Shown piece after piece: positions 34,534 through 64,000 of a DNA stretch of 64,000 bases. The position numbers were made by a program, and so were the translations under genes. Location of the stretch: contig JAZSRA010000107.1 in assembly GCA_045538195.1 (NCBI GenBank), forward strand, positions 5,904-69,903, in the 5' to 3' direction. Source of the DNA: Eubacteriales bacterium (GTDB taxonomy: Bacteria > Bacillota > Clostridia > Oscillospirales > CAG-272). Numbering within the stretch: the stretch's first letter is position 1; the number at the start of each line of letters is the position of its first letter. The notes below the pieces were generated by a model. That model worked only from the letters and a program-made list of their open reading frames with translations, made no database searches and was not told the origin of the DNA.

Positions 34534-34544
34534 AATCTTCTCCT

Positions 34545-36229: not shown

Positions 36230-36230
36230 T

Positions 36231-48168: not shown

Positions 48169-50451
48169 ATGAGACAAATAATCAAACTCAACGAAAATTG
48201 GCTCTTCAAGAAGGACACCACAGATATTACAGCACGCGACGGAGCGAGCGTTAATCTTCCCCACACTTGGAACGCGGAGGACGGACACGACGGCGGTAAC
48301 GACTATTTCCGCGGTTCTTGCCTTTACGTCAAGACCTTAAAGAAGGCTGACCTCCCTGCCGCTGACCGCTACTATCTTGAAATTCTCGGTGCAAACTCCT
48401 CCGCTGACGTTTACGTAGGCGGCGAAAAGCTTGCTCACCACGACGGCGGTTACTCCACTTGGAGAGTTGACCTCACCGAGAAGCTCTCGGACGAGACCGA
48501 CATCGCTATCGTAGTTGACAACTCCCCCAATGAGATCGTCTATCCCCAGATGGCAGACTTCACCTTCTACGGCGGTCTTTACAGAGACGTAAACCTCGTT
48601 TGCGTCAACAACACTCACTTTGATCTTGACTACTTTGGCGGTACGGGTCTTGTTATCACCCCCGCAGTTGAAGGCAAAGACGCAAAGGTTACCGTCGAGG
48701 TCTACACCACCGACCTAAAGGAAGGTCAGAAGCTGGTCTACACCATTTACGATAAGGAAGAAAACGAGCTTCAAAAGATAGAGACCACCGACAAAAAGGT
48801 AGTATTTGAGATCGCAGACGTTCACCTTTGGCACGGACGCAAGGATCCCTACCTATATTGCTGTGAGGTCGAGATCGTAGAGGGTGACACCGTTCTTGAT
48901 AACGTATGCCACCGCTTCGGTTGCCGCACCTTCAAGATCGATCCCAACAACGGATTTATCCTAAACGGTGAAGAATATCCCCTCCGCGGCGTTTCCCGTC
49001 ATCAGGACAGACTTGGCATCGGTAACGCCCTCCTTCCCGAGCATCATGAAGAGGATATCGGATATATTATGGAGATGGGAGCAACCACTATCCGTCTCGC
49101 TCACTATCAGCACGATCAGTATTTCTACGATCTTTGTGACGAAAAGGGTCTGGTCATCTGGGCAGAAATTCCCTATATTTCCAAGCACATGCCCACAGGT
49201 CGTGAGAACACTATCTCGCAGATGAAGGAGCTTATCACACAGAACTACAATCACGCATCTATCGTGGTTTGGGGACTTTCCAACGAGATCTCTATCGGTG
49301 GTTCTGACGAGGATCTGCTTGAAAACCACAGAATACTCAACGATCTTGTTCACGAGATGGATAAGACCAGACTTACCACCATCGCGGCAGTTTCTATGTG
49401 CAAAATGGACGACCCCTACCTCCTTATTCCCGACGTAGTTTCCTACAACCACTACTTCGGCTGGTACGGCGGGGACACAAGCATGAACGGTCCCTGGTTC
49501 GACAAGTTCCACGAAATGCACCCCTCAATCCCGATCGGAATTTCCGAGTACGGCTGCGAGGCTCTCAACTGGCACACCAGCGACCCCAAGCAGGGCGACT
49601 ACACCGAGGAATATCAGGCTTACTATCACGAGGAGCTTATCAAGCAGCTCTTTACCCGTAAATATATCTGGGCTACCCACGTATGGAATATGTTCGACTT
49701 CGGCGCTGATGCAAGAGCCGAGGGCGGCGAGAATGGTCAGAACCACAAGGGTCTTATGACTATGGACCGTAAGTACAAGAAGGACTCCTTCTACGCTTAC
49801 AAGGCATGGCTTGTCTCTCCCGAGGACGATCCCTTCGTTCACCTCTGCGGAAAGAGATACGTTGACAGAGTTGAGGACGTTACAAAGGTAACCGTTTACT
49901 CTAACCTCCCCGAGGTCGAGTTGTTCGTCAACGGTGAAAGCATCGGCAAGAAGACTGCCGAGGATCACTTCTTCTACTTCGACGTTAAGAACGTTGGCGA
50001 GTCCACTATCACCGCCAAGGCAGGTGAGCTTTCCGACGAGGGCAAGATCCGCAAGGTAGAAGAACCCAATATGGATTACGTTCTCCGCGAGGTCGGCGCA
50101 GTCCTCAACTGGTTCGACATCGACGCCCCCGAGGGCAGATACTCTCTCAATGACAAGATCTCCGACATCATGGAGAGCAAGAGAGGTAAGCTCTGGTTCA
50201 TCGGCATGGGCCTCAAGATCAAGAAGAAGATGGATAAGAACAAGAAGGCTGAAAAGGGCGGCGAAAAGAAATCCGGTGGATTTGACGTCGATCTTAAAGC
50301 CGACGGCGGTCTTATGCAGATGATGGGCGGATTTACCGTTCTTCGTCTCACAAGCATGATGGGTATGATGAATATCAGCTTCACCAAGGAAGAGCTTCTC
50401 AAGATGAACAAGAAGCTTAACCGCATCAAGAAACCTAAGCACGTAAAGTAA
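48169..50451 (+). CDS. Glycoside hydrolase family 2 (beta-galactosidase/beta-glucuronidase-like)
   Basis: 760 aa. NLPHTWN sugar-binding domain, TIM-barrel motifs IRLAHYQ, WGLSNE, ISEYG. Confidence 0.85.
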   Translation: MRQIIKLNENWLFKKDTTDITARDGASVNLPHTWNAEDGHDGGNDYFRGSCLYVKTLKKADLPAADRYYLEILGANSSADVYVGGEKLAHHDGGYSTWRVDLTEKLSDETDIAIVVDNSPNEIVYPQMADFTFYGGLYRDVNLVCVNNTHFDLDYFGGTGLVITPAVEGKDAKVTVEVYTTDLKEGQKLVYTIYDKEENELQKIETTDKKVVFEIADVHLWHGRKDPYLYCCEVEIVEGDTVLDNVCHRFGCRTFKIDPNNGFILNGEEYPLRGVSRHQDRLGIGNALLPEHHEEDIGYIMEMGATTIRLAHYQHDQYFYDLCDEKGLVIWAEIPYISKHMPTGRENTISQMKELITQNYNHASIVVWGLSNEISIGGSDEDLLENHRILNDLVHEMDKTRLTTIAAVSMCKMDDPYLLIPDVVSYNHYFGWYGGDTSMNGPWFDKFHEMHPSIPIGISEYGCEALNWHTSDPKQGDYTEEYQAYYHEELIKQLFTRKYIWATHVWNMFDFGADARAEGGENGQNHKGLMTMDRKYKKDSFYAYKAWLVSPEDDPFVHLCGKRYVDRVEDVTKVTVYSNLPEVELFVNGESIGKKTAEDHFFYFDVKNVGESTITAKAGELSDEGKIRKVEEPNMDYVLREVGAVLNWFDIDAPEGRYSLNDKISDIMESKRGKLWFIGMGLKIKKKMDKNKKAEKGGEKKSGGFDVDLKADGGLMQMMGGFTVLRLTSMMGMMNISFTKEELLKMNKKLNRIKKPKHVK

Positions 50452-50597: not shown

Positions 50598-51242
50598 ATG
50601 AAGAAATTTTTTGAAGAATTTAAGAAATTTATCACCCGCGGCAACGTGGTTGATATGGCAGTCGGTGTTATCGTCGGCGGCGCGTTTACTGCAATCGTAA
50701 ACGGACTCAGCAACAACATACTCAAGCCCCTCATCAATATGTTCCTGTTCAAGTTGCTTGGAGAAGGCTCTCTTGAAAACATTTATACCGTTCTTCACCC
50801 GGTTTATATGGTTGATGCGACCACCGGAGAGTTCGTATTTGACCCCGAAACAGGCGCAAGAATGTTGGATCTTGCTAAGTCTATCTACATCGACTGGGGC
50901 TCCTTCATTAACGCCGTTATCAACTTCTTCATTATCGCATTCGTTCTCTTCGTTATCGTTAAGATAATCAATAAATTCAGAGAAAACCACGAAGAAATGC
51001 TTGATAAAATTAACAGCAAAAAGCTTTCGAAGGACCAGCGCAAGGAGCTGAGGGAGGCAGGAATCAAGATTACCAACAAAGCGGCAGTTGAAGCATATTT
51101 CGCAGAAAAGAAGCGCATCGCCGACGAAAAGGCTGCTGAGGAAGCGGCAGCGGCGGCTGAAGCAGCAAGACTTGAACGTGAGGCTAATCCCACCACCGAG
51201 GACCTGCTTAAACTGATACTTGCAGAGCTTAAGAATAAATAA
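50598..51242 (+). CDS. mscL: Large-conductance mechanosensitive channel MscL with extended loop and ~70-aa charged C-terminal tail
   Basis: MKKFFEEFKKFITRGNVVDMAVGVIVGGAF... canonical MscL N-terminus. ATG 50598 preferred over the track start 50523. Confidence 0.85.
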   Translation: MKKFFEEFKKFITRGNVVDMAVGVIVGGAFTAIVNGLSNNILKPLINMFLFKLLGEGSLENIYTVLHPVYMVDATTGEFVFDPETGARMLDLAKSIYIDWGSFINAVINFFIIAFVLFVIVKIINKFRENHEEMLDKINSKKLSKDQRKELREAGIKITNKAAVEAYFAEKKRIADEKAAEEAAAAAEAARLEREANPTTEDLLKLILAELKNK

Positions 51243-51342: not shown

Positions 51343-51609
51343 TTACTCAGCGTCTGCCTTGGGCTTTCCGGAAGGAATACCAGAAAGAAGAGTAGCCTTA
51401 TCAGCTGCTTCGTATGCCTCATCAGACATGCAAAGGATCTTGATACCCTGAATGATACCCATGATAGCATTGATCAATGCAATGATACCGCAAGTAATAA
51501 CTCCAAAAACGATTCTGAGAATACCAGCCTTAACATTACCTGTGATAAAGCAAGGAACACCAATCTGGTTAAACAAAATGGTAAGAATACCAAATACGAT
51601 CTTGTTCAT
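51343..51609 (-). CDS. Small 2-TM membrane protein (TM2/NINE-like topology)
   Basis: 88 aa. AAGGAGG RBS. Glycine-rich TM pair. Confidence 0.55.
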   Translation of the reverse strand: MNKIVFGILTILFNQIGVPCFITGNVKAGILRIVFGVITCGIIALINAIMGIIQGIKILCMSDEAYEAADKATLLSGIPSGKPKADAE

Positions 51610-51641: not shown

Positions 51642-51670
51642 ATTATAGCACGGTTTTGACAGTTTGTCAA
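51642..51670 (-). promoter_or_regulatory. Consensus SigA promoter whose -35 is half of a perfect palindrome TTGACA-N3-TGTCAA
   Basis: Minus strand TTGACA (51670-51665), 17 nt, TATAAT (51647-51642). Palindrome spans 51656-51670. Confidence 0.6.
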
Positions 51671-51891: not shown

Positions 51892-52485
51892 TCATGCAGA
51901 TGGTTCTTGCGTTGTCTCGCCTTCATCCTTTACTTCAGGCATAGGATATGTACTCCCATACTCTATATCAGCATTGAGAACCACGCCCCAACGAGGCTCA
52001 AGAATAACTTTCGTTGTTTTCGTCACTGTAATCTTAAACTTGAACGGGTCTGTTCTCGCTTCGCTCTTATCAACATTGGCGGTATTGTCTCCAATGATTG
52101 CAGCGGTATGTTGTTCTGCACCGTCTCCTATCGTTACAACACAGTGTCCCTTAACTGTGGATTCCGTTGTCAACGTCAAAGTAATCTCATATGTTCCCGG
52201 ATAAAGAGTACAAATGTATCTTCCCGCCTTAGCAGAATCTTCAGCTAATTCAACATTGCTCGCAGTCGCAACGCCATCATCGACCTTCGATACAGCTATC
52301 GTCACGTCAAAGGATCCCGATGTAAGCGTATTCCTGCTACTCGTTGTTTCAGCGGTAAACCAAGCGTAAGTCATGGAGCAGAGCGCGACAAGGCATAGCA
52401 AAATACTGACCACCGATATGATCAGACTTTGCGAAAACGCCTTTTCTGTTATTTTTTCGTCTTTGCAATCAAAAAAGTTTTTCAA
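51892..52485 (-). CDS. TasA/camelysin-like protein with SipW-cognate signal peptide (small subunit 3)
   Basis: TTG start 52485 after AGAGGAGGA. ...ILLCLVALCSMTYAWFTAETTSSRNTLTSGSFDV... matches the TasA-type signal/cleavage motif. Confidence 0.7.
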   Translation of the reverse strand: MKNFFDCKDEKITEKAFSQSLIISVVSILLCLVALCSMTYAWFTAETTSSRNTLTSGSFDVTIAVSKVDDGVATASNVELAEDSAKAGRYICTLYPGTYEITLTLTTESTVKGHCVVTIGDGAEQHTAAIIGDNTANVDKSEARTDPFKFKITVTKTTKVILEPRWGVVLNADIEYGSTYPMPEVKDEGETTQEPSA

Positions 52486-52528
52486 GAGTTTTCCTCCTCT
52501 CGGATATCTATATGAGTTAATATTTTCA

Positions 52529-52597
52529 GCAATCAAAAGACACAAGCAGGATTCTCTTATGTCCTTTGATTGCCGCCCAACCCCCGAAGGGGTTGGG
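52529..52597 (-). ncRNA. Intercistronic dual-hairpin RNA module, copy 1 (C(UUCG)G-capped GC stem + AU-rich stem)
   Basis: RNA sense: CCCAACCCC-UUCG-GGGGUUGGG (52597-52576), then GCAAUCAAAGGACA-17 nt-UGUCUUUUGAUUGC (52573-52529). Confidence 0.55.
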
Positions 52598-52607
52598 GAC
52601 TTTAGGT

Positions 52608-54380
52608 TTATTTATTGTTGTAAACAACGGTTACTCCGTCGTGAGTAGGACATCCGTAAACACCCTGCCCACCGCCAAAGAGTTGATCGAATATAAGCAG
52701 AATGTTATGGTCTTCACCATCATTATGAACGTGGTTGTCGTCTACTGCCTTGTTGCCATTCGCATCCGTGGCTACGCCGTAACGTGGATTGGAGTAGGGG
52801 GCACTTTGACCGCAGGCATTACCTGCCTGTACTCTTACGTAAGGCCAGTTCGTGCCTGCAAATTCACAGTAGGTGTAATTCGCCCAATCTCCGTAGGTGA
52901 CGGTACAATTCGTTGCCGTCAAATAGGATGCTGTTGCACTGGTTCTACCATCTGCCGTCACTGTTTCCTCGGAATTACCGATTAACATGCCTGCTCTGCG
53001 GTATGCATACCATTGATAAGAGGACGTAACGTCGTTGTATGTATTGAGCTCACAAGCAACGTCGCAATCTTCAAATGTCAGTGTTGCATCTCCCCACTTA
53101 CCGCCTACGATACCGCCAAGTGAGCAGTCGAAATCACCCCACAGGCTGGAAACTACGACGTCAGAGGCTACGTCAACATTCTTAAAGGTCTGCGTGCCGT
53201 TTACTTCACCGACTACACCGCCGGTATAACGCTGATAGTTGGCAATGGTGCTATTGGAAACGGAAATGTTTTCATATGTGCAGTTGCCGTAGGAATATCC
53301 AACAAGAACACCCATATCAATGCACTCCATGACGATTTCAGCACCGTCAATCGCTACGTTTTTAATAGTTGCATCCACAACAGAAGCGAACAATCCACCA
53401 CCTTCGGTGCTATAATCTAATCCAAGAGCCCAACCATTCTGATAAAGATTGAAAATGGTGTGCCCCTGACCATCAAAGGTTCCCTTAAATACGACATCAT
53501 AGCCGTAACCAATGGGGTCAAAGCTTTTAGGTTCAGTAGCTCCATCAGGGATGTAGCAAAGATCCATATCAGCATCAAGCTTTATGGTTTTACCCGCAAA
53601 ATTATTGCCACCATCTACCAATTCAGCAAGACCTGCAAGTGCTTCTGCAGTGGAAAGAGTAAATTCGGTATCGGTATCATTGTACCAAGAAGTATCTGCC
53701 GTTCCGTCCCAAACGTCGACCTTATTCAACACGGGATATTCAGCATTCGCATCATAATCTTTACCGAAAGCATCTTCTTCAACAGCAGCCTGAGTTGCAA
53801 CCAAGGTTACGCCAAGTTTTGCATAAAGCTTTTCGCCGGCGACGTTATAATCGTTGTCGTTAGCGGAAGGTGCCCAATATATTGCAACGTAGAACTCGTC
53901 AACACCAGTCTTTGCTTCAAGAACACAATCGCTCTCCAAAGCAAAGGTCTCAAGATCCCGAGTTGCAGCAGTCGCGATATTATCGCGGGTGGGCTGAACG
54001 TTCAGAACCGCTACCTTAAGTACGTCAGCAAAGCTCTTACCCTCAACAACGCTAATACTAGAAACATTTATGGTAAGAGTGTACTTGAGATCAAGGCTAC
54101 CGAGATTCTTAACAGTGAACTTTTCCCAAACCATTGCTCCGGGTTCCCAAAGGGTTACGTCGTCGAACAGCGTGGTAGTGTCGCTAACAGGCTCATCAGT
54201 GTCAGTACCATTGGCGTGATACAGTTCCACATCCAAATTACCAGCGACAATTTTGTTCGATGCGCTGGTAACGCTATCAGTGAACCAAGCGAACGTCGTC
54301 CCGAGCAGCATAGCGAAGCAAAGGAACAGAGCAATCACGCTGGAAATCAAAGCAGACTTCGTGCTTCTCGTCTTTGTCAT
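52608..54380 (-). CDS. TasA-like N-domain fused to GLUG-type beta-helix domain (590 aa), SipW-cognate signal peptide
   Basis: MTKTRSTKSALISSVIALFLCFAMLLGTTFAWFTDSVTSASNKIVAGNLDV. Then FKGTFDGQGHTIFNL and repeated GG(L/V/I)(F/V)(A/G) beta-helix rungs. Confidence 0.75.
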   Translation of the reverse strand: MTKTRSTKSALISSVIALFLCFAMLLGTTFAWFTDSVTSASNKIVAGNLDVELYHANGTDTDEPVSDTTTLFDDVTLWEPGAMVWEKFTVKNLGSLDLKYTLTINVSSISVVEGKSFADVLKVAVLNVQPTRDNIATAATRDLETFALESDCVLEAKTGVDEFYVAIYWAPSANDNDYNVAGEKLYAKLGVTLVATQAAVEEDAFGKDYDANAEYPVLNKVDVWDGTADTSWYNDTDTEFTLSTAEALAGLAELVDGGNNFAGKTIKLDADMDLCYIPDGATEPKSFDPIGYGYDVVFKGTFDGQGHTIFNLYQNGWALGLDYSTEGGGLFASVVDATIKNVAIDGAEIVMECIDMGVLVGYSYGNCTYENISVSNSTIANYQRYTGGVVGEVNGTQTFKNVDVASDVVVSSLWGDFDCSLGGIVGGKWGDATLTFEDCDVACELNTYNDVTSSYQWYAYRRAGMLIGNSEETVTADGRTSATASYLTATNCTVTYGDWANYTYCEFAGTNWPYVRVQAGNACGQSAPYSNPRYGVATDANGNKAVDDNHVHNDGEDHNILLIFDQLFGGGQGVYGCPTHDGVTVVYNNK

Positions 54381-54419
54381 TTTCTAATGACCTCCTTTTT
54401 TAATTTTTGTCGATTTATT

Positions 54420-54485
54420 CGGCAATTAAAAAGCACAAACGGATTTATGCTCTTTAATTGCCGCCCAAGCCCCGAAGGGCTTGGG
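54420..54485 (-). ncRNA. Intercistronic dual-hairpin RNA module, copy 2
   Basis: CCCAAGCCC-UUCG-GGGCUUGGG (54485-54464), then CGGCAAUUAAAGAGCA-11 nt-UGCUUUUUAAUUGCCG (54463-54420). Differences from copy 1 are compensatory in both stems. Confidence 0.55.
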
Positions 54486-54519
54486 GGTAAATTCCTATTG
54501 AAATATAAATCGATTTAGC

Positions 54520-57500
54520 TTAGTAAACATCTACGCCGTCAACAACAACGTTGAGCTTGTCTTTACTCATGGAGTTCTTGTTGCCCCACAGAGTAGTTCC
54601 AGTGTTGATACCCTTGTCGTTGATCTCGTAACCGTTAACAACAGTATTGTTAACGATAAGCTCGTAAGACTTGCCGTAATCGTTTCCAATCTCAACAGCA
54701 GCCTTAAGGTCGGTGAGACCGCCCTTGTCGTTAAAGGTACAGTCATTCAACGTAAGCTTAGTATTTGCCGTACCATAGAGCAACAGAGCCTTACCGTCAG
54801 AGTTGAAGGTGCAGTTGTTGAAAGTAGCCTCAGGAGCGCCCCATGTCCAGATATTGTACTGGTCGCCACTGATATTAAAGGTACAATCGGTGAACGTCGA
54901 ATCTTTATACAAGCAATAGGTATTCTCAAAATGACAGTTGTTGTACGTACCGCTCATACGTACATAACCTGCGTAGGTATTGTTGTTGGATCGAATGGTT
55001 ACGCCATTAAAGGTAACGGTAGAGCCATCAAATCCATAGTCAGACTGACCGCCATTTTCCGATCCCGTACCAACGATTGTAAGAACAACATCCTTTGTTC
55101 CGTTAATGGTCAAGGTCTGGCCGCCGCAGCCGTAAACATCGTACTCGCCGTCAGCAAGATACAGCTCAGTAATACCATTCGATACCTTTTGAGCCAATTC
55201 TTCGGCATTTGTGACGTAAGTACCAAATACATTCGGGAAGTTTTTAATGCTCAAAACGCCCAAGCCAACATTTTCGGCAGTGGTACAAGGATTGCCCCAG
55301 CAACACCAAGAGGGATCCTCGCTGTTGCCTGCCTTCACATTGGAAGTATCGCAAGCAATATTTCCAACGAAACCAATAGCATTATGACCTGTACCGATTC
55401 CTGCGCCAAGCCAGCCGCCCTGCGCGGTTATCACGGAATCAGCATCGATCGTAACAGCGATAACAGGAGTGGGCGTTACACCCGAGCAATATGTGTTATA
55501 GCCGCTTCCGATACCTGCGCCAAAGTCGCCGCCTGTAGCATTGACTGTGGAATTAGCAATGTTTATGGTAACGTTCTGAAGATCGCCAGACTCATACTTG
55601 GTCATACGTGAGCCGCCAATACCTGCAGAAGAACTGCCGCCCACAACATTTTTAATGACAGAGTCAACGATATTGATGGTTACGCCAGTATGATAACGAG
55701 CTCCGATACCTGCGCCCTTGGAACCGCCAAGAGCCTCATCAACAGTTACATTGTTCAGAGTGATCTCAGCTCCTGTGTAGCCCGAACCGATAGCAGGCGC
55801 GCCCTCAAAATCCTGTTTGCCATAATTATTACCGATCTTGGAATCCACACCGGCACCGGTTGCCTTTACTATATGAACATTGCTGATATTGAGCTTAGAA
55901 ACATTCATACCGCCAATACCGAAAGCTGCTTTTACATCCGTAGCAATTGCGGTCAGATTACCTGTGCCGGAAATGGTCAAAGTGCCATTTGCGGTGATTG
56001 CGGAGCCGTCAAAGGTCGTGACGGTCTCTGCTACAGTCGCAACACCGCTTCCGTTTGCGTTTACGACTACGTCGCCAACGATCACGATGTTTGCGTTGCC
56101 CGCAGCCTGAACAGATTTAATTGTAGAGTCTTTGATCGTCAAAATACCCGTATAATCGGTGGGAAGATTTATGATAGCATCAGGCTCGTTGCAGTTGCTC
56201 AAAATTGCCGCGGTAGACAAAGCGTCTCCGGACAATCCTGCCAACTCCTTATTCAACAGAGCCGTGCTTGTTACGTTGATCGAACGCTTCATGGTCACAT
56301 TTTCCACGGTATTGGTTCCCATAACGGGAGCTACACGCGTACTAACGATTTCGCCGGGATTACTCTTGGTTACGGAAACATAGTTTATAACTACGTTTTT
56401 GAGAGTATTACCTGTTACAGATACACTGGTCTGCGCTACACCCGCAAGACCGCCAACATCACCAAAAGCGTTGAGAATAGCGGTATCAACAGTATTATTG
56501 GTCAACTCGCTGCCGTTATCTGCATAGCCAACCAAAGCTCCAACCTTAGTTCCGTCGGTATCGTCATTGTAATAAGAACAGTTTATGGTAACATTCTTAA
56601 CGGTACAGTTAGTAACAGGAATGTTTATCCAGCCTGCAATAGCTCCTGAGTAACGATGAGAATTTATAGTAACACCGTCAATCGTCAGATCCTTAATGCT
56701 ATTGCTTCCGCTGTGGTGTTCGACCCAACCAAACAAACCTGCCGCGCCATATTGGCTTGTGTTGGCAGTGTTATCAATGTTAAGGTTATAGATGGTATGT
56801 CCGTTTCCGTCAAACGAGCCTACAAACTGAGTAGAGCCTGTTTGACCAATAGGCGTCCACAATCTGTTTCCAAGGTTGATGTCAGCAGCCAGCTTTATAG
56901 TCTTACCCGAGTAGGTGTTACCGCTATTAACAGCTGCGGCAAATCCTGCAAACTGCTCCGCGTTAGTGATAGTTATCACACCGTCAACCGCTTCAGGTAC
57001 AGCTTCAGTTTTGCCCGTCCAAGGAAGACCTGCCAACTCATCGTAATTCTCATTGAAGCTATCGGACTCAGAAGAGTACTGTGTCGCAAAGAGCGTTACA
57101 CCAATATCAATGGTAAGAGGCTCGCCCTTGCCGTTGTTCATGTTATAATCGTTATCATTTTCACTGGGTTCCCAATAGATAACGACCGTGTATACGTCCT
57201 TGTCATCTTTATTGATAAGATTACCCGTCTTTGTGAAGGAAGTGAGCGCGGTCCACTCCTCATCCTCAACCTCGGCGATCAAAGCGGCGCGGTCGTCGGT
57301 TGCGGTCGCTCCGCCCTTGATCACGCCTACCTTCAATACGTCAGCAAGCGTGTTACCGTTGGCATTTGCGTTCGCATTTGTTACGTTAACGGAAAGCTGA
57401 TATTTGAGCGCAAGGCTACCCTCGTTTACGACCTCAAATGTCTCGTAAACGACTGCGCCGGGCTCCCAAAGCGCAATGTCGTCAAACAACACTGTGTTGC

Positions 57501-57699
57501 TGCCGACCTTCTCATGTGTGTCTATATCATCGGTATGATAAAGCTCAATGTCAAGATTACCGGACTTGATGATGTTGTTTGCACTTGTCACACTGTCAGT
57601 GAACCATGCGAATGTTGAACCCAAGAGCATTGTGAAGCAAAGCAAAAGGGCTATAACGCTGGAAATCAGAGCAGACTTTGTGCTTCTTATTTTTGTCAT
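54520..57699 (-). CDS. Giant TasA-like N-domain / GLUG beta-helix / GxGIG-repeat / CxF-repeat beta-helix fusion (1059 aa), SipW-cognate signal peptide
   Basis: ATG 57699 after GGAGG. MTKIRSTKSALISSVIALLLCFTMLLGSTFAWFTDSVTSANNIIKSGNLDI. Then FVGSFDGNGHTIYNL, six (A/G)(A/F)GIG rungs, and C-terminal NNCHF/FTDCTF/FNNCTF/LNDCTF repeats. Confidence 0.75.
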   Translation of the reverse strand: MTKIRSTKSALISSVIALLLCFTMLLGSTFAWFTDSVTSANNIIKSGNLDIELYHTDDIDTHEKVGSNTVLFDDIALWEPGAVVYETFEVVNEGSLALKYQLSVNVTNANANANGNTLADVLKVGVIKGGATATDDRAALIAEVEDEEWTALTSFTKTGNLINKDDKDVYTVVIYWEPSENDNDYNMNNGKGEPLTIDIGVTLFATQYSSESDSFNENYDELAGLPWTGKTEAVPEAVDGVITITNAEQFAGFAAAVNSGNTYSGKTIKLAADINLGNRLWTPIGQTGSTQFVGSFDGNGHTIYNLNIDNTANTSQYGAAGLFGWVEHHSGSNSIKDLTIDGVTINSHRYSGAIAGWINIPVTNCTVKNVTINCSYYNDDTDGTKVGALVGYADNGSELTNNTVDTAILNAFGDVGGLAGVAQTSVSVTGNTLKNVVINYVSVTKSNPGEIVSTRVAPVMGTNTVENVTMKRSINVTSTALLNKELAGLSGDALSTAAILSNCNEPDAIINLPTDYTGILTIKDSTIKSVQAAGNANIVIVGDVVVNANGSGVATVAETVTTFDGSAITANGTLTISGTGNLTAIATDVKAAFGIGGMNVSKLNISNVHIVKATGAGVDSKIGNNYGKQDFEGAPAIGSGYTGAEITLNNVTVDEALGGSKGAGIGARYHTGVTINIVDSVIKNVVGGSSSAGIGGSRMTKYESGDLQNVTINIANSTVNATGGDFGAGIGSGYNTYCSGVTPTPVIAVTIDADSVITAQGGWLGAGIGTGHNAIGFVGNIACDTSNVKAGNSEDPSWCCWGNPCTTAENVGLGVLSIKNFPNVFGTYVTNAEELAQKVSNGITELYLADGEYDVYGCGGQTLTINGTKDVVLTIVGTGSENGGQSDYGFDGSTVTFNGVTIRSNNNTYAGYVRMSGTYNNCHFENTYCLYKDSTFTDCTFNISGDQYNIWTWGAPEATFNNCTFNSDGKALLLYGTANTKLTLNDCTFNDKGGLTDLKAAVEIGNDYGKSYELIVNNTVVNGYEINDKGINTGTTLWGNKNSMSKDKLNVVVDGVDVY

Positions 57700-57791
57700 T
57701 TCTATGACCTCCAAAAAAATTTGTTTGCCGATATTTAGGTAAAACCGTTTTCCGACCATATCGGCTAGCCTTGTCGGAAGCGGTTATTAAC

Positions 57792-58688
57792 TTATACTTC
57801 GTCCGTTGTTTCCGTTGGAGCAACATCTTTCGATTTCGTTTCAACTGTTTCATCGGTCGCTGTTTCCGCAGGAGCATCTTCCGATTTTGTTTCAACTTTC
57901 GTTTCAACTGTTTCATCGGTCGCTGTTTCCTCCGTAGGAGTTACCTCGGACGTAGGCTCGGCGGGAGGTGTTCCCTCTCCACCGTTCTTTTGGTCAAGCT
58001 GTGCTTTAAGGGCTAACAGCTCTTGTATCATACGCTGATTTTCAGCGCGTTCCGCGTCGATCTTATCCCTCTCAGCTTTCATTGCCTCCATCTGTTCACG
58101 CTTATATTTGCGGAACAGGCGGATTACATTCACGCCGTTATAGAGGATCAGAAGCAGGAATGGTACGAGAATACAAATGATATATCCGGGCGTTGACTTC
58201 ACAAAAGCGAAGAATTTGCCGAGCGCGGGGAGCTTACCCGAGTAAACACCCAAAACGTATTCAGGCTCTACCAAAGATTCATCGTCCGTTCCCGTATTCG
58301 TACCGTAGGTCACGTAGCCAAGGACTTTGCCCTCTTCGGTTTTCATGACCTCACGGATCATATGTGTGACGGTCTCTCCGTAGCTTACGCTGTTGGTTGA
58401 CATAAAGGCGATTACGTCGCCCGCCTGCAAAGCTCGGGGATCCTCCACGTTTTTGATAATGACAATATCTCCTGCGTTAAAATGCACGTCCATATCCTTG
58501 TTATTCTCTGACAAGCTCATTGAATCAGTCTGGACTATGTAAAACTTTACGCCGAAAATACTGCGGTCGTTTCTGTCAACGGTGGTTACCGTGACAACGG
58601 TGAATATCATCATAAAGACGGTAAAGGCAACGAGAAGCCAAGTTACGACCTTCAATGCAATATTCATTATTTTTTTAATTGTATTCAT
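57792..58688 (-). CDS. sipW: SipW-type (ER/archaeal-type) signal peptidase I with ~120-aa coiled-coil + acidic T/E-repeat C-terminal tail
   Basis: N-terminal TM, catalytic-Ser context VQTDSMSL, VTHMIRE His motif, second TM, then KYKREQMEAMKAERDKIDAERAENQ... and a duplicated ETATDETVETK (a 31-bp exact nucleotide repeat at about 57836 and 57900). Confidence 0.8.
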   Translation of the reverse strand: MNTIKKIMNIALKVVTWLLVAFTVFMMIFTVVTVTTVDRNDRSIFGVKFYIVQTDSMSLSENNKDMDVHFNAGDIVIIKNVEDPRALQAGDVIAFMSTNSVSYGETVTHMIREVMKTEEGKVLGYVTYGTNTGTDDESLVEPEYVLGVYSGKLPALGKFFAFVKSTPGYIICILVPFLLLILYNGVNVIRLFRKYKREQMEAMKAERDKIDAERAENQRMIQELLALKAQLDQKNGGEGTPPAEPTSEVTPTEETATDETVETKVETKSEDAPAETATDETVETKSKDVAPTETTDEV

Positions 58689-58702
58689 TGGGAAATCGCT
58701 CC

Positions 58703-59296
58703 TTAATTAAGCTTTGCATTACCCTGTACCGCATATACGGTTACGCCAATACCCGTATAGATCTTGCCTTGAAATTCGTTGCCCACGGATTCCTTCATTT
58801 TGATAAATAAGTAATAAGTGTCGCTGCTTTCTCCGGCAGCCAAGCCATTCACCTTGAACTCGGTGATCCGCTCCGCGCCCCGTAAATCGTCGCCTTTCTT
58901 TACGATCCAAAGCTCAAAGGCTTTATCGAACTCTTCCATATCGATCTTATCGTCCTTGCTGACCGAAAGGCTGAAATTCACGGGAATATCTCCCGTATTC
59001 TTGATCTTAAAGCCCTGCGTATAAAAGGTAGCGCCGGGTTCAAAAAGAACGTTTCCGCTATCGGTTGGCGTACCGGAAGTGGTCATGAAAAGCAAAGCTT
59101 TATTTTGAAGCGTAGCTCCCGACGTATCCACGATATCGATCTCAACATCGCCTGACGTCGTGATGATACCGATGATTCCATCGTTCGGATCGCTTGTGAA
59201 GAGAGCGAGCGTCGCTCCCACAAGGCTCACGAGGCAAAGCAGGATGACCAATGCCGTCATAATGAACGCTTGTTTATGTGATTTATAACGGAACAT
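58703..59296 (-). CDS. TasA/camelysin-like protein with SipW-cognate signal peptide (small subunit 2)
   Basis: ...VILLCLVSLVGATLALFTSDPNDG...SGDVEI... C-terminal ...VGNEFQGKIYTGIGVTVYAVQ is typical of the TasA-fold last strands. Confidence 0.75.
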   Translation of the reverse strand: MFRYKSHKQAFIMTALVILLCLVSLVGATLALFTSDPNDGIIGIITTSGDVEIDIVDTSGATLQNKALLFMTTSGTPTDSGNVLFEPGATFYTQGFKIKNTGDIPVNFSLSVSKDDKIDMEEFDKAFELWIVKKGDDLRGAERITEFKVNGLAAGESSDTYYLFIKMKESVGNEFQGKIYTGIGVTVYAVQGNAKLN

Positions 59297-59340
59297 TTTT
59301 CCCTCCTTGCCGTTAGAAATTATTTGTCAGTAAATTTTAA

Positions 59341-60657
59341 TTATTTTACAGATGCATTTGCTGTGTTCGCTGTTACAAGAGTAGCAAGGTTCTCTGCGGT
59401 AAGAGCAACTCCGCCAATGGTGCAATTTTTAAAGGTAACTGCCGCACGGGCATCCATCTCAAATCCTACTTCAAACTCGCATCCTACAAATTCGGTAGGA
59501 GCATAAGGACGGCAGTAAGCGTAACCGTTGCCCTCGCCAAAATTACAGCTAACAAACTTTGCCTCACCTAGAGTTGCGGCATAAGAAGTCCAACCGTTGA
59601 ATGTGGAATTGATAGCCTCAAGTCCCTGATTGGTTCCCTGGTCGCAGCTGATGGTATAAGTAGTTCCGTCAATAGTAACGTTCTCAAGAACTACTTTTTC
59701 ACTGTGAGTGCTGTTATGGTTGATGAAAATACCACGGAAAGAGCCTGTTACGGTGATATTACGAATGATACCGCCGGTAGTGTTGATGCCGGAGTCCCAT
59801 GTGCCGTCAGCACCTGCAATATCAAGCGTATTTCCGCCGCCGTCGATCGTTTGACCGTTCTTTACGTTGATACCGGTCGTACCGTAAGCGTTGCTCATAC
59901 CTGCGGGATCAATCTTAACGTCGTTCTTCAAAAGAACGTTTTCTCCGCTTTCAAGAGTTGCTACAAGTCCGTCGGCATCGGCAACTGCTTTACCACCAAA
60001 CAATTCAACGGTAGCATCTCCACCGATTACAATGTCAGCATTGCTCTGAACTGCTTCGACCAAAACGTTGATAGCAACGTCCTTTTTGCCCTGATACTCG
60101 TTACCTGCGGTAACAGGAAGTTCAACGACGATTTCAACGTTTCCGTTATCAGTAATGCTCTCGCCTACTGCAAGTGCAGTCCAAGCAGAAGTATAAGACT
60201 TGAGCGCCTGGTAAGGAGCATCGTTGATATAAACAACGAGTCCTTCCATAAGCGCCTCACCGTTTACACATTGAATGATATAACGGCACTGAACAGCTAC
60301 GTCGCTATTGTTCGTAGCCTTAATCTCAAACGAAATCTTATCACCAGGAGTGATTTTGTCGAGATTAATCATAGAACCGTTTTGAACGGCAGTTCCACCG
60401 TTAGCAAACGTACCCTTGTCGGTGCGATTATCATACTCATATTTGCCACCATTTTCATCAACGATGGTTCCGTTAGGATCTGCTTTGACCGAGAAATATT
60501 TGAAGTTTTCAACAGTCGCAACCACATCTACATTACCGGCAGTGACGGCAATATTGGTTTCACTCTTACTCGTAAACAAAGCGAAGGTCGATCCTGCGAT
60601 CAGACTAAGGCAAAGAGCGATTGTCGCAATCGAGGACAGCAAAATTTTCTTTTTCAT
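59341..60657 (-). CDS. TasA-like N-domain fused to right-handed beta-helix (CxF-repeat) domain (438 aa), SipW-cognate signal peptide
   Basis: ATG 60657. MKKKILLSSIATIALCLSLIAGSTFALFTSKSETNIAVTAGNVDV. The C-terminal FVSCNF/FVGCEF/FKNCTI repeats resemble the C-terminus of the 1059-aa protein. Confidence 0.7.
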   Translation of the reverse strand: MKKKILLSSIATIALCLSLIAGSTFALFTSKSETNIAVTAGNVDVVATVENFKYFSVKADPNGTIVDENGGKYEYDNRTDKGTFANGGTAVQNGSMINLDKITPGDKISFEIKATNNSDVAVQCRYIIQCVNGEALMEGLVVYINDAPYQALKSYTSAWTALAVGESITDNGNVEIVVELPVTAGNEYQGKKDVAINVLVEAVQSNADIVIGGDATVELFGGKAVADADGLVATLESGENVLLKNDVKIDPAGMSNAYGTTGINVKNGQTIDGGGNTLDIAGADGTWDSGINTTGGIIRNITVTGSFRGIFINHNSTHSEKVVLENVTIDGTTYTISCDQGTNQGLEAINSTFNGWTSYAATLGEAKFVSCNFGEGNGYAYCRPYAPTEFVGCEFEVGFEMDARAAVTFKNCTIGGVALTAENLATLVTANTANASVK

Positions 60658-60756
60658 TTTGCGTTTTCTCCTTATATTATTTTTCGAAGCTTGATTTCGG
60701 TCGAAACGCGAACTCAAGCTTCAGCAAGTTCTGCGTTCGTGTTTGTTTCTTTACTC

Positions 60757-61458
60757 TCACGGAGTGGGAGCAGTGGTTCTTTGTACTGCATGAACAATCA
60801 AGTCAAAGGTCAACTTCTGAGCCTTTGCAGCATTGTTGTTTGCACCGTCAACGAACTCCATCTTAACGGTAAACTCGTCAGAATCGCCGAGCGTTAGCGT
60901 TCCGATGGGAGCGGTATCACTTCCAATCGTTAATCCTTCGCTTAACAATGCAGACACAGGCTTTGCCAACTCTTCCGAGCTGACCGTAATCATCAACTGC
61001 TCGTCAAGCTTCAGCGCCTCGATTTCTTCTGCCGTAAGCCCGTCAACCTTCAACTTAATCTCAATCCAATAATCGTATGCAACGTCACTGTTCTGTTTGT
61101 TTTCAGTAACTGTTGCCGTGTTGTTGGATATTTTCATCGTTGCGGTATAATAACTGCAAGGCACAATCTTCGAAGTCGTCGTGAGGTCAAACACGTTTTT
61201 ATCCGTAGGATTGGAGAAATTCACAACATCATCGTTTGTCGTGGACACAAGATACCCCGTAGCAGCGTCAATCGAATAAGTTTCAAGTTTGGTTCTCTCC
61301 AACGTAATGTTTAGATCTCCGGCTTGCAAATGGTTTTCGACCGTTGCTGTATCGGTGAACAATGCCCACGTCATTCCCACGATAATCGTCATACACAACA
61401 GGATTACTGAAGCGGAAACAAGCAAAGCCCTTATTCTGTTCGTACTTTTCATAGTCAC
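60757..61458 (-). CDS. TasA/camelysin-like protein with SipW-cognate signal peptide (small subunit 1)
   Basis: ...VILLCMTIIVGMTWALFTDTATVENHLQAGDLNI... 233 aa. AAAGGAGG RBS. Confidence 0.75.
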   Translation of the reverse strand: MTMKSTNRIRALLVSASVILLCMTIIVGMTWALFTDTATVENHLQAGDLNITLERTKLETYSIDAATGYLVSTTNDDVVNFSNPTDKNVFDLTTTSKIVPCSYYTATMKISNNTATVTENKQNSDVAYDYWIEIKLKVDGLTAEEIEALKLDEQLMITVSSEELAKPVSALLSEGLTIGSDTAPIGTLTLGDSDEFTVKMEFVDGANNNAAKAQKLTFDLIVHAVQRTTAPTP

Positions 61459-61508
61459 TCCTCCTTTCTCACAGATTTTTGTTTATTGAAACGCTGAAAT
61501 CAGCGGCT

Positions 61509-62039
61509 TCAATCTTTAAGGATAATAACCGTACCGCCCGTCAGCTCAATCATCTTGATTGCCTGAATGGAATAGCTTTCGGACTTGATGGTGAGCGGCT
61601 TATTAAGCATACCGTCAGCCAGAACCTTCATTCTGCCTGCCTTCTTGGAGATCAATCCTCTTTCTTTCAACACCGCAAGAGTAATTACGTCGTTTGCATT
61701 AAAGTTGTCGTCCAGCACGCCGATATTGATAATTCCCTCCTGTCCGTGTCCTGCACCGCTTTCGTAATTGGCAGTCTGCATAGCCAGCGAGTCGGAGATC
61801 ATAGCATCTGCTTCCTCGGCGTCGATATGCTCAACGAATTCGGGCATAACCTCGGGCGGTGCCTCCTCAAGAACGGGAACAGGAGCGGGAGCGGCAACCA
61901 CAACGGGGGCTTCTTTCTTTTCTTCCTTGGTTTCCTCTTTGTTGCGCATTTCAAGAACGACGTCAACGGCGACGTATCCGAGAGTACCCAACGCAAAGAT
62001 CGTCGCAACGATCATAAATATAATGACGAACACGCTCAT
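61509..62039 (-). CDS. Membrane-anchored protein with Pro/Glu-rich linker and ribosomal-protein-uL15-like C-terminal domain
   Basis: N-terminal TM (VFVIIFMIVATIFALGTLGYVAV). The C-terminal INIGVLDDNF...VITLAVLKERGLISKKAGRMKVLADGMLNKPLTIKSESYSIQAIKMIELTGGTVIIL aligns by eye with the E. coli L15 C-terminus (IRLSDL...VDLNTLKAANII...[35 protein letters not shown]). ATGA overlap with the upstream peptidase gene. Confidence 0.6.
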   Translation of the reverse strand: MSVFVIIFMIVATIFALGTLGYVAVDVVLEMRNKEETKEEKKEAPVVVAAPAPVPVLEEAPPEVMPEFVEHIDAEEADAMISDSLAMQTANYESGAGHGQEGIINIGVLDDNFNANDVITLAVLKERGLISKKAGRMKVLADGMLNKPLTIKSESYSIQAIKMIELTGGTVIILKD

Positions 62040-62812
62040 TCCGTTTTATCCTCCTTTTTCTCAGTATTTACTGTCGTTTGCTCGGACTTTTCCCTTTCAA
62101 GCTCTGCGATCTTACGGCGAAGCTCTTCAAGCTCACTCTCTTTCTGAGCCTTCTCCTCTTGCTCCCGTTTCTTTTTGTCCGCACCGAGCACCTTTGCGAT
62201 TTTCAAAACTTCGAGCAAGATAATAATAAAACACGGTACGATAATGAGAAGAATAATACCAACGGGCTGCATCAAGAAGCTCATAATGAGACCAAACAGA
62301 TATGTTTGCCCAGTGACCTTTCCGATCACGTAGTCCGTATTGTTTGGAATAGATGTGTCAATGACCTGCGTGAGTTGACCGTCCTCGGAGTTTTTGTTAT
62401 CTCCTGCGAGAGTAATCTTGAAGCCTCCATCTACTTCTTCTATATCCGTGATACGGTGGGTGATCGTTACTTGCGTTGTGACAACGTAACGGAAGGTAAG
62501 CACGTCACCGACCTTCAAGCTGCGATAAAACGCTTCAGCCTCGTCCGTATCGTCGGGCATTACCTTCACGAACACCATAGAACGAATCGGGATATCCTTG
62601 ATCTCGAAGCTTGACACATCAGTAAGCTCGCATGCAGCCATAGAATTAGAGGTGACTACTCGCATCTGGTATCCAAAAATCTCGGCGGCACCATCCGAAT
62701 CCCTTTTCGATAACACGGTAACAAACACCGAAAAAATGCAAATTGCAAGGAATATGTAAAGAAGTACGTCAAGAGATATTTTGCCTATCTTTTTTATCTT
62801 TGCTTTATCCAT
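62036..62812 (-). CDS. sipW: Second SipW-type signal peptidase I with K/E-rich coiled-coil C-terminal tail
   Basis: N-terminal TM, VVTSNSMAAC Ser motif, ITHRITD His motif, second TM, then KKKREQEEKAQKESELEELRRKIAELEREK. Confidence 0.8.
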   Translation of the reverse strand: MDKAKIKKIGKISLDVLLYIFLAICIFSVFVTVLSKRDSDGAAEIFGYQMRVVTSNSMAACELTDVSSFEIKDIPIRSMVFVKVMPDDTDEAEAFYRSLKVGDVLTFRYVVTTQVTITHRITDIEEVDGGFKITLAGDNKNSEDGQLTQVIDTSIPNNTDYVIGKVTGQTYLFGLIMSFLMQPVGIILLIIVPCFIIILLEVLKIAKVLGADKKKREQEEKAQKESELEELRRKIAELEREKSEQTTVNTEKKEDKTE

Positions 62813-62820
62813 AGATTACC

Positions 62821-63318
62821 TCACTCGTTAGTCGCCTTCAGCAGCAGTTCAAAGACCGCCTCTGCTTTTTTGGCCTCATTTCCAACATCAAGGGGGAGAT
62901 AGTACACAATTTTAAGCTCAGTGTTATTTCCCTGGTCAAAGTCAACGGGTAAGATAATTATATCGTTTTCAAAGACATCCGAAAGCAACTCATCGCATAC
63001 GACCTCGCCGTTTGCAAGGATTTTCACACGAGCGTAGTTCTTTAACGTTTTTTCTTCGTCAGTGTCAACGAAATCAATCTCCAAGTCGTATTTACTTGCG
63101 CCGGATTTTTCAAGCTTTACGATGTATTCACATTCTTCACCGGGTACGAGAGTGAGATCTTCAAATGCCAGCGACTCTGTTTTGCCGTCCTCCAGCTTAA
63201 CCTCAATTACGCCTCGTTCATCTTCTGTTGCGTGCATCCAGCCCATCAATGAAACGCCGACGATAATCAACACGCTTCCGACAATTAAGATGATTCGAAT
63301 TAGCTTGCTTTTAGGCAT
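62821..63318 (-). CDS. Signal-anchored TasA-fold-like beta-sandwich protein lacking the A-x-F-T-D cleavage motif (TapA-like role?)
   Basis: 165 aa, N-terminal TM. FEDLTLVPGEECEYIVKLEKSG and C-terminal YYLPLDVGNEAKKAEAVFELLLKA resemble the conserved first and last strands of the neighbouring TasA-like paralogs. Confidence 0.5.
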   Translation of the reverse strand: MPKSKLIRIILIVGSVLIIVGVSLMGWMHATEDERGVIEVKLEDGKTESLAFEDLTLVPGEECEYIVKLEKSGASKYDLEIDFVDTDEEKTLKNYARVKILANGEVVCDELLSDVFENDIIILPVDFDQGNNTELKIVYYLPLDVGNEAKKAEAVFELLLKATNE

Positions 63319-63358
63319 CGTTGTCCTCCTTTCCTAAAATCGCAAAAGTATCGGGATC

Positions 63359-63607
63359 TTAATCCTCAATTTTTGAACGGAATATAACGGCTCTGCAATT
63401 TGAGCAAATAGATTCGCTCTCCGCTATCGGTCTGTTGCATATCATACATTTTTTGGAAGATGTTCCGATTTCGCATTCCATACAGACGAGCATACCCTCG
63501 GGGATATCTCTGCCGCAGGCAATACAGGTGTTGATACTCGTATCAACGTACATCACCTTATTTTCCGTTTGTTGTTCTGTTTTCTTCTTTTCTTTTTGTT
63601 TTTTCAA
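63359..63607 (-). CDS. Small zinc-ribbon protein (4 CxxC) with Lys-rich N-terminus
   Basis: CIAC, CMEC, CMIC, CSNC. TTG start 63607 (alternative ATG 63553). Confidence 0.55.
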   Translation of the reverse strand: MKKQKEKKKTEQQTENKVMYVDTSINTCIACGRDIPEGMLVCMECEIGTSSKKCMICNRPIAESESICSNCRAVIFRSKIED

Positions 63608-63627: not shown

Positions 63628-64000
63628 TCAAGACGCTTTCGCCGAATCCTTGAAATACGTCATCATCATGCAGTACAGGACGTTGAAGATATGCGGTCTG
63701 TTTATTTCGTTATCTTCAAGCTCGCCGTTATAAACACGGATGGCAAAATCAAACATTGCGGTGAAAACACTATGTAAGATAGAGGCTACATCCGCTTCTT
63801 CCTTGAAAATAGAATTCATTTCAGAAATCATTTCGTTAAAGAGCGTTTTGTGTGCCTCAAGCGAATTTCCTTTGAAATAAATCGAATAGTAATATCTGAC
63901 ATAGCACCGGCAACGTTCTTCATTGCCCAAGATAAAATTCCAAGCCATCGAAAAGAACATACTTAGACGTTCCTTCGTATCCTGCTCAAAGCCGCCAACT
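63628..64000 (-). CDS. C-terminal part of an all-helical protein, possibly a TetR-family regulator ligand domain; N-terminus outside the window
   Basis: The reading frame stays open to the window edge (…VGGFEQDTKERLSMFFSMAWNF…). Only 20 nt separate its stop from the zinc-ribbon gene. Confidence 0.35.
   Translation of the reverse strand, partial: VGGFEQDTKERLSMFFSMAWNFILGNEERCRCYVRYYYSIYFKGNSLEAHKTLFNEMISEMNSIFKEEADVASILHSVFTAMFDFAIRVYNGELEDNEINRPHIFNVLYCMMMTYFKDSAKAS

Follow-up and report, generated by a model that had tools for sequence, protein, structure and literature searches.

A stretch of 64,000 nucleotides (nt) from Eubacteriales bacterium (CAG-272; GCA_045538195.1, contig JAZSRA010000107.1, positions 5,904 to 69,903 of the forward strand), hereafter called the window, contains at positions 51892–63607 a locus of eleven genes that, on balance, probably encodes a surface-fibre system of the TasA/BsaA type that depends on SipW and not on sortase. 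The bacterium is an uncultured, Oscillospiraceae-like member of the gut Clostridia. The genes were named g01 to g11 in the order of their transcription. Two of them (g03 and g08) encode the SipW-type signal peptidases SipWa and SipWb, and six (g05, g06, g07, g09, g10 and g11) encode their presumed substrates. The initial annotation of this DNA had recognised a SipW/TasA-type locus with six cognate substrates, which the motif, PF12389 (Peptidase_M73, camelysin/TasA) and TIGR04088 (SipW-dependent-type signal peptide) matches bear out. We infer that the fibre would form by donor-strand exchange, because the proteins are homologous to TasA, BsaA, CalY and AbpA, each of which makes fibres of the donor-strand kind.

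When the entire 64 kb were translated in six frames, exactly six matches to the signature C[LFMIV]..[GSA].T[FWLY]A[WL]F[TS] were obtained, and its six-residue core T[FWLY]A[WL]F[TS] alone likewise gave exactly six matches. All six signature matches are the N-termini of g05, g06, g07, g09, g10 and g11, the same six products for which this signature had been noted before. Since the six-frame matches fall only at these N-termini, the shared signature goes beyond a chance pattern. Cleavage had initially been placed after A-x-F; by analogy with TasA, it would be expected after T-x-A and before L or W (this site is marked by an arrow below).

All eleven minus-strand genes were recovered as open reading frames (ORFs) at exactly the coordinates of the initial annotation. 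The intergenic gaps from g01 to g11 are 40, 8, -4, 50, 99, 44, 14, 92, 139 and 122 nt. Two tight junctions described earlier can also be read in the sequence. An ATGA overlap at 62036–62039 joins g03 and g04, on the basis of which g04 is predicted to be translationally coupled to g03. At the junction of g07 and g08 (TAAGGAG), the stop codon of g07 lies inside the ribosome-binding site of g08, at 58703, and translational coupling of g07 to SipWb in the window is predicted as well. A promoter and terminator scan of the window revealed no convincing operon promoter, and the count of sites was no higher than in shuffled sequence. A G+C-rich hairpin, CCCAACCCCTTCGGGGGTTGGG, is located between g10 and g11 (window 52575–52600), and the coding strand shows no U-tract there; the hairpin could serve RNA processing or stability, or could act as a partial terminator setting the dosage of g11.

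A scan of one genome per species, with ORF calling and phmmer used to establish gene order, yielded 35 loci. All of them were found in metagenome-assembled genomes (MAGs) named Clostridia, Eubacteriales, Oscillospiraceae, Candidatus Flemingiibacterium or uncultured Subdoligranulum, and the sources of these MAGs were the hindgut of sheep, roe deer and cattle and the human gut. The order g02–SipWa–g04–g05–g06–g07–SipWb–(one to three large carriers)–g11, in which a carrier is a TasA-like N-domain with a passenger behind it, is kept in about 25 of the 35 species-level loci, with g07 identity across the conserved loci going down to 47%. Four further contigs with an 82%-identical g04 showed the same gene order. 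Conservation of the eleven-gene order across Clostridia, a check suggested initially, therefore holds for g02–g11 in about 25 species-level MAGs but not for g01, whose orthologs were found only in the closest relatives (L001–4 and L010), most loci having no Cys-rich ORF upstream of g02. Thus, g01 is outside the locus core. In close relatives, g07, SipWb and SipWa show 78–89% identity, and g05, g06, g09 and g10 show 35–50%. Half-loci consisting of g07–SipWb–carrier(s)–g11 alone were found in L011, L030, L036 and L038.

The PF12389 gathering score of 22.5 bits was exceeded by g05 (31.8 bits), g06 (34), g09 (32.5) and g10 (35.3). The match covered model positions 6–115 in g09 and 6–130 in g10, and 40 of the 42 orthologous N-domains of the g09/g10 type from related loci matched this family as well. 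The TIGR04088 cut-off of 19 bits was passed by g05 (23.4 bits), g06 (21.9), g10 (22.2) and g11 (20.4), with g09 being marginal (18.5). As checks on the six proteins, which the initial annotation had suggested, both searches succeeded for the proteins listed above the thresholds but failed for g07, discussed below, and in the case of PF12389 for g11 (13.2 bits, below the gathering score). On the evidence of the motif and these matches, the six pre-proteins bear a SipW-cognate signal.

Three small proteins had been described as TasA-like subunits. This applies over the whole length to g05 and g07, but only to the first 70 or so residues of g11. The g05 protein carries a C-terminal ...VHAVQ motif and is fast-evolving, with 43–49% identity in relatives whose g07 is 85–89% identical. 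The most conserved subunit is g07, which is always encoded directly upstream of SipWb. Its paralogy to g06, g09 and g10 is evident from 25–30% identity over about 110–220 residues (E of about 1e-5 to 4e-8); a BLASTP search with g07 found the g10 N-domain (25% over 207 amino acids (aa), E 4e-8) and g09 (E 2e-8), and identity between g06 and g07 is 26% (219 aa). The motifs EPG and G.GVTVYAVQ of g07 are common to the TasA-like paralogs, which share a C-terminal ...A(V/T)Q. Modeling of g07 using AlphaFold2 (AF2) led to a model of moderate quality (pLDDT, the predicted local distance difference test score, 62.5), with low confidence at residues 27–83. Five proteins (g05, g06, g07, g09 and g10) are thus predicted to contain a TasA-like domain, the assignment being solid for g09 and g10 and indirect for g05–g07. 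An hhalign comparison of profiles A1 and A3 (E 1e-46) was circular, as A1 includes the window paralogs, and was not used as evidence.

Both peptidases matched NF046067 (Bacillus SipW), in agreement with the earlier assignment: g03 gave 72.4 bits (E 3e-20) and g08 gave 84.1 bits (E 9e-24), scores that are far under the equivalog cut-off of 190 bits. With TIGR02228 (endoplasmic reticulum/archaeal-type signal peptidase I, cut-off 51.85), g08 was above the cut-off (53.1 bits) and g03 below it (42.8 bits). The catalytic Ser and His (S57 and H119 in g03, S56 and H109 in g08) are invariant across 58 SipWa and SipWb sequences, and two SipW paralog classes that retain these residues can be distinguished at the sequence level. 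The His box is THRI in the SipWa class and THMI in the SipWb class, and the GDN box is intact in 23/23 SipWa sequences. Transmembrane (TM) segments were located at residues 16–34 and 184–202 in g03, which has a charged C-terminal tail, and at 14–32 and 170–188 in g08, which has a long acidic T/E-rich tail. Cleavage of the cognate signal peptides by SipWa and SipWb is predicted.

The residue after the predicted cleavage site depends on the position of the gene. In the window and the related loci, the proteins encoded between the two peptidases have T-x-A↓L-F in 84/84 cases with a detectable motif, and those encoded after SipWb have T-x-A↓W-F in 60/61 cases, with F in the remaining one. In the window, the L class comprises g05, g06 and g07 and the W class comprises g09, g10 and g11; this split tracks gene position relative to both peptidases in the 35 loci. 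Mature TasA begins at residue 28, and its donor strand is formed by residues 28–38 (PMC9674648); therefore, the L or W would be the P1' residue and would at the same time open the presumed donor strand. As the split is found in no more than about five independent orthologous groups, the L/W rule is suggestive and falls short of proof.

The single heteropolymeric fibre of the initial annotation is one reading of these data, and the L/W split and the half-loci also allow two fibres or an ordered assembly. A possible, though doubtful, alternative is that the locus builds two assemblies, namely an L-class fibre (g05, g06 and g07, with SipWa and the g02 anchor) and a W-class fibre or coat (g09, g10 and g11, with SipWb). 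It would account for the way in which the split follows position relative to the peptidases, for the systematic difference between the peptidase classes (THRI/GDN versus THMI/GTN) and for the occurrence of the g07–SipWb–carrier–g11 half alone. However, in the half-loci SipWb is the only peptidase beside the L-class g07, which speaks against a strict assignment of one peptidase to each class and makes a donor-strand code the remaining alternative; in the window, moreover, g07 is coupled to SipWb. In addition, with about five independent orthologous groups, such a partition would arise by chance in about 6% of cases (a rough estimate, not computed).

The carrier proteins of the proposed fibre system are g06, g09 and g10. 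In g09, a TasA-like N-domain of about 215 aa is followed by a mosaic passenger of about 840 aa, and in g10 the passenger comprises 375 aa behind the N-domain; g09 and g10 are 45% identical over 394 aa. The C-terminal part of g06 matched PF20585 (Pectate_lyase_5, a pectate-lyase-like adhesive domain) with 24.4 bits against a cut-off of 24.3, and g09 matched Beta_helix_3 at a sub-threshold 18.7 bits. As these matches are weak, so is the beta-helix assignment previously given to the fusions. The g10 passenger had no Pfam family and no PDB match, and a phmmer search of the PDB sequences with g09, g10 and the g09 passenger gave nothing useful. Orthologs of g06 range from 207 to 964 aa, and its passenger is therefore optional. 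Each locus contains one to three large carriers of 300–1945 aa. The modules of the g09 passenger recur in further carriers, g06 orthologs among them; their positions vary, and carriers of the L class as well as of the W class contain them. Passengers are shuffled among carrier genes. A 705-aa carrier (approximately 15001–17118 in L002) is present or absent between contigs sharing an identical g04 (L001 vs L002/L003), which is strain-level cassette variation.

The g11 protein combines a TasA-like start with a different domain. When a profile of 12 g11 orthologs was compared with the TasA-like N-domains using hhalign, residues 15–70 alone were aligned, with a probability of 98.6%. The remainder has conserved positions of its own (Y99, G113 and W166–G167), and the C-terminal ...A(V/T)Q motif is absent. 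In most relatives, g11 is the final gene of the locus. TapA-family models (NCBIfam/Pfam) matched neither g11 nor g02 at E up to 1. By analogy, g11 would be TapA-like in logic only, with a TasA-like donor strand on a non-TasA domain, and we propose that it may serve as a TapA-like initiator or cap.

The g02 protein, which is present in about 23 loci, has a TM segment at residues 6–24 and no SipW cleavage motif. The AF2 model built with 34 homologs (pLDDT 78.9, about 90 over residues 37–164) shows a beta sandwich after the N-terminal TM helix. A Foldseek search against the PDB found TasA (5of2, 5of1) at E 3.9e-4, and 5of2 gave the top query TM-score, 0.52 over 187 columns; the earlier description of g02 as a membrane-anchored TasA-fold protein without the cleavage motif agrees with this. 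The sequence GNEAK...LLKA at its C-terminus can be aligned with GNE...A(V/T)Q in the TasA-like paralogs. Based on this model, we propose that g02 may be the membrane anchor or terminator of the fibre.

A number of observations weigh against a TasA-type fibre system. For g02, CUB jelly-rolls had a better E-value (2e-5) than TasA, and the hhalign comparison of g02 with the TasA-like proteins was weak (E 0.014, probability 3%). The PF12389 match in g05 and g06 is limited to the first 50 or so residues, and g07 matched no family hidden Markov model, PF12389 and TIGR04088 included, though the motif GATLA↓LFTS is present. The structure comparison suggested initially, which supported a jelly-roll for g02, gave for g07 only weak Foldseek matches (E about 1e-3, TM-score 0.3–0.44) with TasA absent among them; these matches were the PapG pilin domain, FimG, Csu (donor-strand pilins), the archaeal TasA-like bundling pilus 7ueg and cannulae. 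A profile of the 42 N-domains found no match among PDB sequences, TasA included; the similarity is mostly in the signal/donor-strand part, which is not in the crystallised constructs. GTN replaces GDN in 35/35 SipWb sequences, so that the Asp is lost, with a conserved D/DD a few residues further on; mutagenesis of SipW has pointed to the Asp of the GDN box as important. Finally, the half-loci L011, L030 and L038 have one peptidase and yet contain both L and W substrates. Overall, a TasA fold is reasonably supported for g02; for g09 and g10 the support comes from homology, and for g05, g06 and g07 it is no more than indirect.

A further reading has no fibre at all; in it, the TasA-like N-domain would be an export or retention tag for secreted or surface-retained adhesins or enzymes, and the small paralogs would be chaperones or decoys. 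It agrees with the large, diverse and shuffled passengers, with the weak fold prediction for g07 and with the behaviour of BsaB, a TasA-like paralog of C. perfringens that only dimerises (PMC11580942). We nevertheless consider it improbable, as the characterised family members TasA, CalY, BsaA and archaeal AbpA all make donor-strand fibres, in all six proteins no part is better conserved than the donor-strand segment, and the membrane-anchored, acceptor-like g02 would be left without an obvious role.

The g04 protein matched PF00828 (uL15/L27A) with 49.6 bits (cut-off 21.5) and consists of an N-terminal TM helix, a K/E- and P/A-rich linker and a uL15-like globular domain, so that its initial description as a membrane-tethered uL15-like protein stands. 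With the rplO model TIGR01071, it reached 41.1 bits against 77.95 and matched model positions 75–143 only; because this model failed, g04 is judged from its sequence not to be ribosomal L15. A search of 1.8 billion cluster representatives with g04 returned 708 proteins at E up to 1e-10, many of them 1000–4259 aa long, with g04 matched almost full-length at the extreme C-terminus. In seven giant proteins that were scanned, PF00828 was C-terminal in 7/7 and Listeria-Bacteroides repeats were found upstream in 4/7. Their layout comprises a signal peptide, a giant ectodomain, a strong TM helix, a K/R stop-transfer, a P/E-rich linker and the uL15-like domain, which is predicted to be cytoplasmic since the positive-inside rule was applied to this layout. 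Examples of proteins with the uL15-like tail are P0382, P0393, P0398, P0404, P0415 and P0491. Judging by these alignments, g04 is probably a head-less copy of the C-terminal module of giant surface proteins. One such protein of 1599 aa is named 'uL15 family ribosomal protein' at NCBI, which is clearly a misnomer. A literature search on Ribosomal_L27A with transmembrane proteins found no relevant paper. In seven loci, the g04 slot is filled by a 270–380-aa protein with the same TM helix (MEILFMVFM...) and a P/A/E-rich linker, and with another conserved C-terminal domain for which Pfam gave no match, as though domains had been exchanged on an unchanging membrane stub. One contig has an additional uL15-like gene copy of 115 aa (L003:3392–3739).

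Taken together, the preferred fibre system could work as follows. The six pre-proteins would be exported by Sec and cut after T-x-A by SipWa and/or SipWb, which would expose an N-terminal strand starting with L (g05, g06, g07) or W (g09, g10, g11). The freed strand would enter the jelly-roll of the next subunit, as in TasA, giving fibres in which g06, g09 and g10 act as carrier subunits and display adhesin- or enzyme-like passengers along the fibre or at its end. Having a donor strand without a TasA-like acceptor domain, g11 would start or cap the fibre as TapA does, and g02, with an acceptor fold and an uncleaved TM anchor, would accept the final donor strand and hold the fibre at the membrane. 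The L or W at the first residue of the donor strand may set the cutting peptidase, or which subunit follows which, and g04, as a membrane protein with a putatively cytoplasmic uL15-like tail, might organise the assembly site. A reading that joins all these elements describes a sortase-free modular Gram-positive pilus assembled in ordered steps, with g11 as the initiator, passenger-carrying and small shaft subunits, and g02 as the membrane terminator; the L and W classes, each co-evolved with its own SipW, would encode the order, and the uL15-like tail would couple the assembly site to the translation machinery. In this complete form it is rather unlikely.

Coordinates of the genes of the proposed fibre locus in the window and of the alternative genes in the g04 slot of related loci
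Feature	Position	Strand	Basis
Twelfth gene, 3' part (frame leaves the window without a stop)	63628..64000	(-)	
g01, 82-aa double zinc-ribbon protein	63359..63607	(-)	DZR/DZR_2 just sub-cut-off, four CxxC
g02, 165-aa TM-anchored TasA-like jelly-roll (predicted)	62821..63318	(-)	TM segment, AF2/Foldseek
g03 (SipWa), 258-aa signal peptidase I	62036..62812	(-)	NF046067, catalytic boxes
g04, 176-aa TM + uL15-like protein	61509..62039	(-)	PF00828
g05, 233-aa small TasA-like subunit, L class, TWA↓LFTD	60757..61458	(-)	PF12389, TIGR04088
g06, 438-aa L-class carrier, TFA↓LFTS	59341..60657	(-)	PF12389, TIGR04088
g07, 197-aa small TasA-like subunit, L class, TLA↓LFTS	58703..59296	(-)	Paralogy, motifs
g08 (SipWb), 298-aa divergent SipW-type signal peptidase	57792..58688	(-)	NF046067, TIGR02228
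g09, 1059-aa W-class carrier, TFA↓WFTD	54520..57699	(-)	PF12389
g10, 590-aa W-class carrier, TFA↓WFTD	52608..54380	(-)	PF12389, TIGR04088
g11, 197-aa W-class protein, TYA↓WFTA, TTG start	51892..52485	(-)	TIGR04088
g04-slot alternatives	L006:3885-4703, L012:2140-2961, L021:5597-6406, L023:5430-6248, L029:7358-8497, L031:2760-3845, L033:5567-6376		

At the upstream side of the locus, g01 has four CxxC motifs, and its DZR (26.1 bits) and DZR_2 (26.6 bits) scores are just under the cut-offs, in line with its earlier description as a Zn-ribbon protein. The locus had been described as one of eleven genes, but a twelfth gene lies upstream and is cut by the window end. Its fragment is 89% identical to L001:7463–8077, and the region past window position 64000 was inferred from orthologous loci. 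The fragment belongs to the ortholog of a conserved gene of about 204 aa, which was found upstream of the locus in L001–4, L006, L008 and L015. The 204-aa protein showed weak similarity to TetR_N (17.8 bits against a cut-off of 24), and the twelfth gene is a possible TetR-like regulator. In L001 and L002 (1–6914), a tyrosine integrase, a resolvase-like gene, a helix-turn-helix protein and a 1002-aa N6-methylase/SNF2 helicase fusion are located upstream of the locus. A mobile-element origin as a general feature was rejected, as the window and most other loci do not contain the integrase, resolvase and methylase genes of L001/L002.

Immediately downstream of the locus, the gene of an 88-aa TM2-like membrane protein (51343–51609, -) is preceded by a sigma-70 promoter of perfect consensus at 51642–51670 (-), with TTGACA, 17 nt, TATAAT and an extended TG. 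The rest of the window contains ordinary chromosomal genes, namely ABC transporters, sugar-use genes and a two-component system, and also a Trk-like system (33883–35942), MscL (50598–51242), a probable glycoside hydrolase (48169–50451) and two tRNA genes (23809–23883 and 23973–24058, -). A match to the Gut-1 RNA (RF01706), a small RNA motif of gut metagenomes, was located at 36161–36231 (-) with 54.5 bits against a gathering score of 50. A 102-aa ORF (33492–33800, +) opens with MGPQGPEGPRGPVG, a short G-x-y repeat like that of collagen, and continues with a small domain; the ORF may encode a BclA-like surface or spore protein or may be spurious.

Many Clostridia sporulate, and the locus could be imagined as a spore-surface or sporulation-linked coat component and not as a vegetative biofilm or adhesion fibre. 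TasA itself was first described as spore-associated (PMC9674648). Such a role is highly improbable here, as no sporulation gene or sigma-factor signal was seen adjoining the locus, which is flanked by genes for sugar use, a channel and transport.

So far, TasA-type fibres have been described chiefly in Bacillus, a single Clostridium and some archaea, in every case with a single peptidase and no more than two plain subunits. In the proposed fibre system, the same chemistry would be expanded into a conserved cassette of 10–12 genes in abundant uncultured gut Clostridia of ruminants and humans, with outer domains of the subunits that change fast and are interchangeable. If true, this would explain how these bacteria, which would need no sortase pili for it, adhere to fibre, to mucus or to one another, and it would offer a natural scaffold for protein display on self-assembling fibres. 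A simple testable handle on subunit order or processing is provided by the strict L/W rule together with the two classes of peptidase. The uL15-like, putatively cytoplasmic tail on many giant surface proteins, now annotated as ribosomal, is a question in its own right. The novelty originally claimed for the locus has to be narrowed, since several BsaA/TasA paralogs per operon and possible heteropolymers were already noted (PMC11580942) and TasA/CalY heterofilaments were shown in B. cereus (PMC13082335). In the literature searched, no account was found of two fixed peptidase classes tied to L/W substrates, of a TM-anchored TasA-fold protein, of carrier subunits with shuffled passengers or of a uL15-like membrane module, and a search on TIGR04088 found no relevant paper.

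Among known systems, four come closest to the locus, two of Bacillus, one of C. perfringens and one of archaea. Like B. subtilis tapA-sipW-tasA (5OF1/5OF2; PMC9674648), the locus encodes a SipW-type peptidase together with its substrates, and the G-x-T-x-A↓x-F motif is found in both, as are PF12389 matches and, by prediction, a jelly-roll. TapA, which may donate the first strand to the TasA fibre (PMC9674648), can be likened to g11 in having a TasA-like N-terminal strand on a different domain. However, B. subtilis has one peptidase and one TasA where the locus has two paralogs of the former and five of TasA-like type; the TM-anchored TasA-fold protein, the passengers of 220–840 aa and the uL15-like membrane protein are found only here, and it contains neither a TapA homolog detectable by HMM nor a SinR/SinI context. 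The C. perfringens sipW-bsaA-bsaB-bsaC operon (PMC7395162, PMC11580942) is likewise a SipW operon of a Clostridium and encodes several TasA-like paralogs together with an additional large secreted protein. Its oligomers are membrane-anchored and sortase-independent, to which the fibre proposed for the present locus can be likened; the anchoring of BsaA oligomers was attributed to an unidentified factor, and a C-terminal fusion to BsaA was tolerated (PMC11580942). Unlike the locus, the bsa operon has one peptidase, and its BsaC, whose secretion requires type IV pilus genes, is a VWA protein in its own right and no fusion. In BsaA, the subunits are locked by an N-E-K isopeptide triad, whereas the mature g09/g10 N-domains have no invariant Lys; in g07, E86, N100 and K114 are conserved.

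The B. cereus sipW-tasA-calY system with CapP (PMC13082335) parallels the proposed fibre in having two TasA-family subunits that form heterofilaments, with CapP as a chaperone-like accessory protein; a CapP-like gene is not present in the locus, and B. cereus has one peptidase and no passenger fusions. Archaeal AbpA/AbpB (7UEG; PMC9245690) resemble the proposed fibre in the TasA-like jelly-roll pilin and N-terminal donor-strand polymerisation, and a TapA-like partner has been proposed there as fibre starter and adhesin; 7ueg was among the weak g07 matches. The archaeal operon differs in having no dedicated peptidase, a single pilin and other accessory membrane proteins. With chaperone-usher and sortase pili, the analogy is functional only and concerns an ordered heteropolymer with a tip adhesin, shaft and terminator or anchor; in chaperone-usher pili, donor-strand complementarity decides subunit order. 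Chaperone, usher, sortase and LPXTG motif are all absent from the locus, which also differs in fold family and in the route of export. Thus, the locus is most likely an elaborate variant of a known biofilm-fibre system and not a new type of machine.

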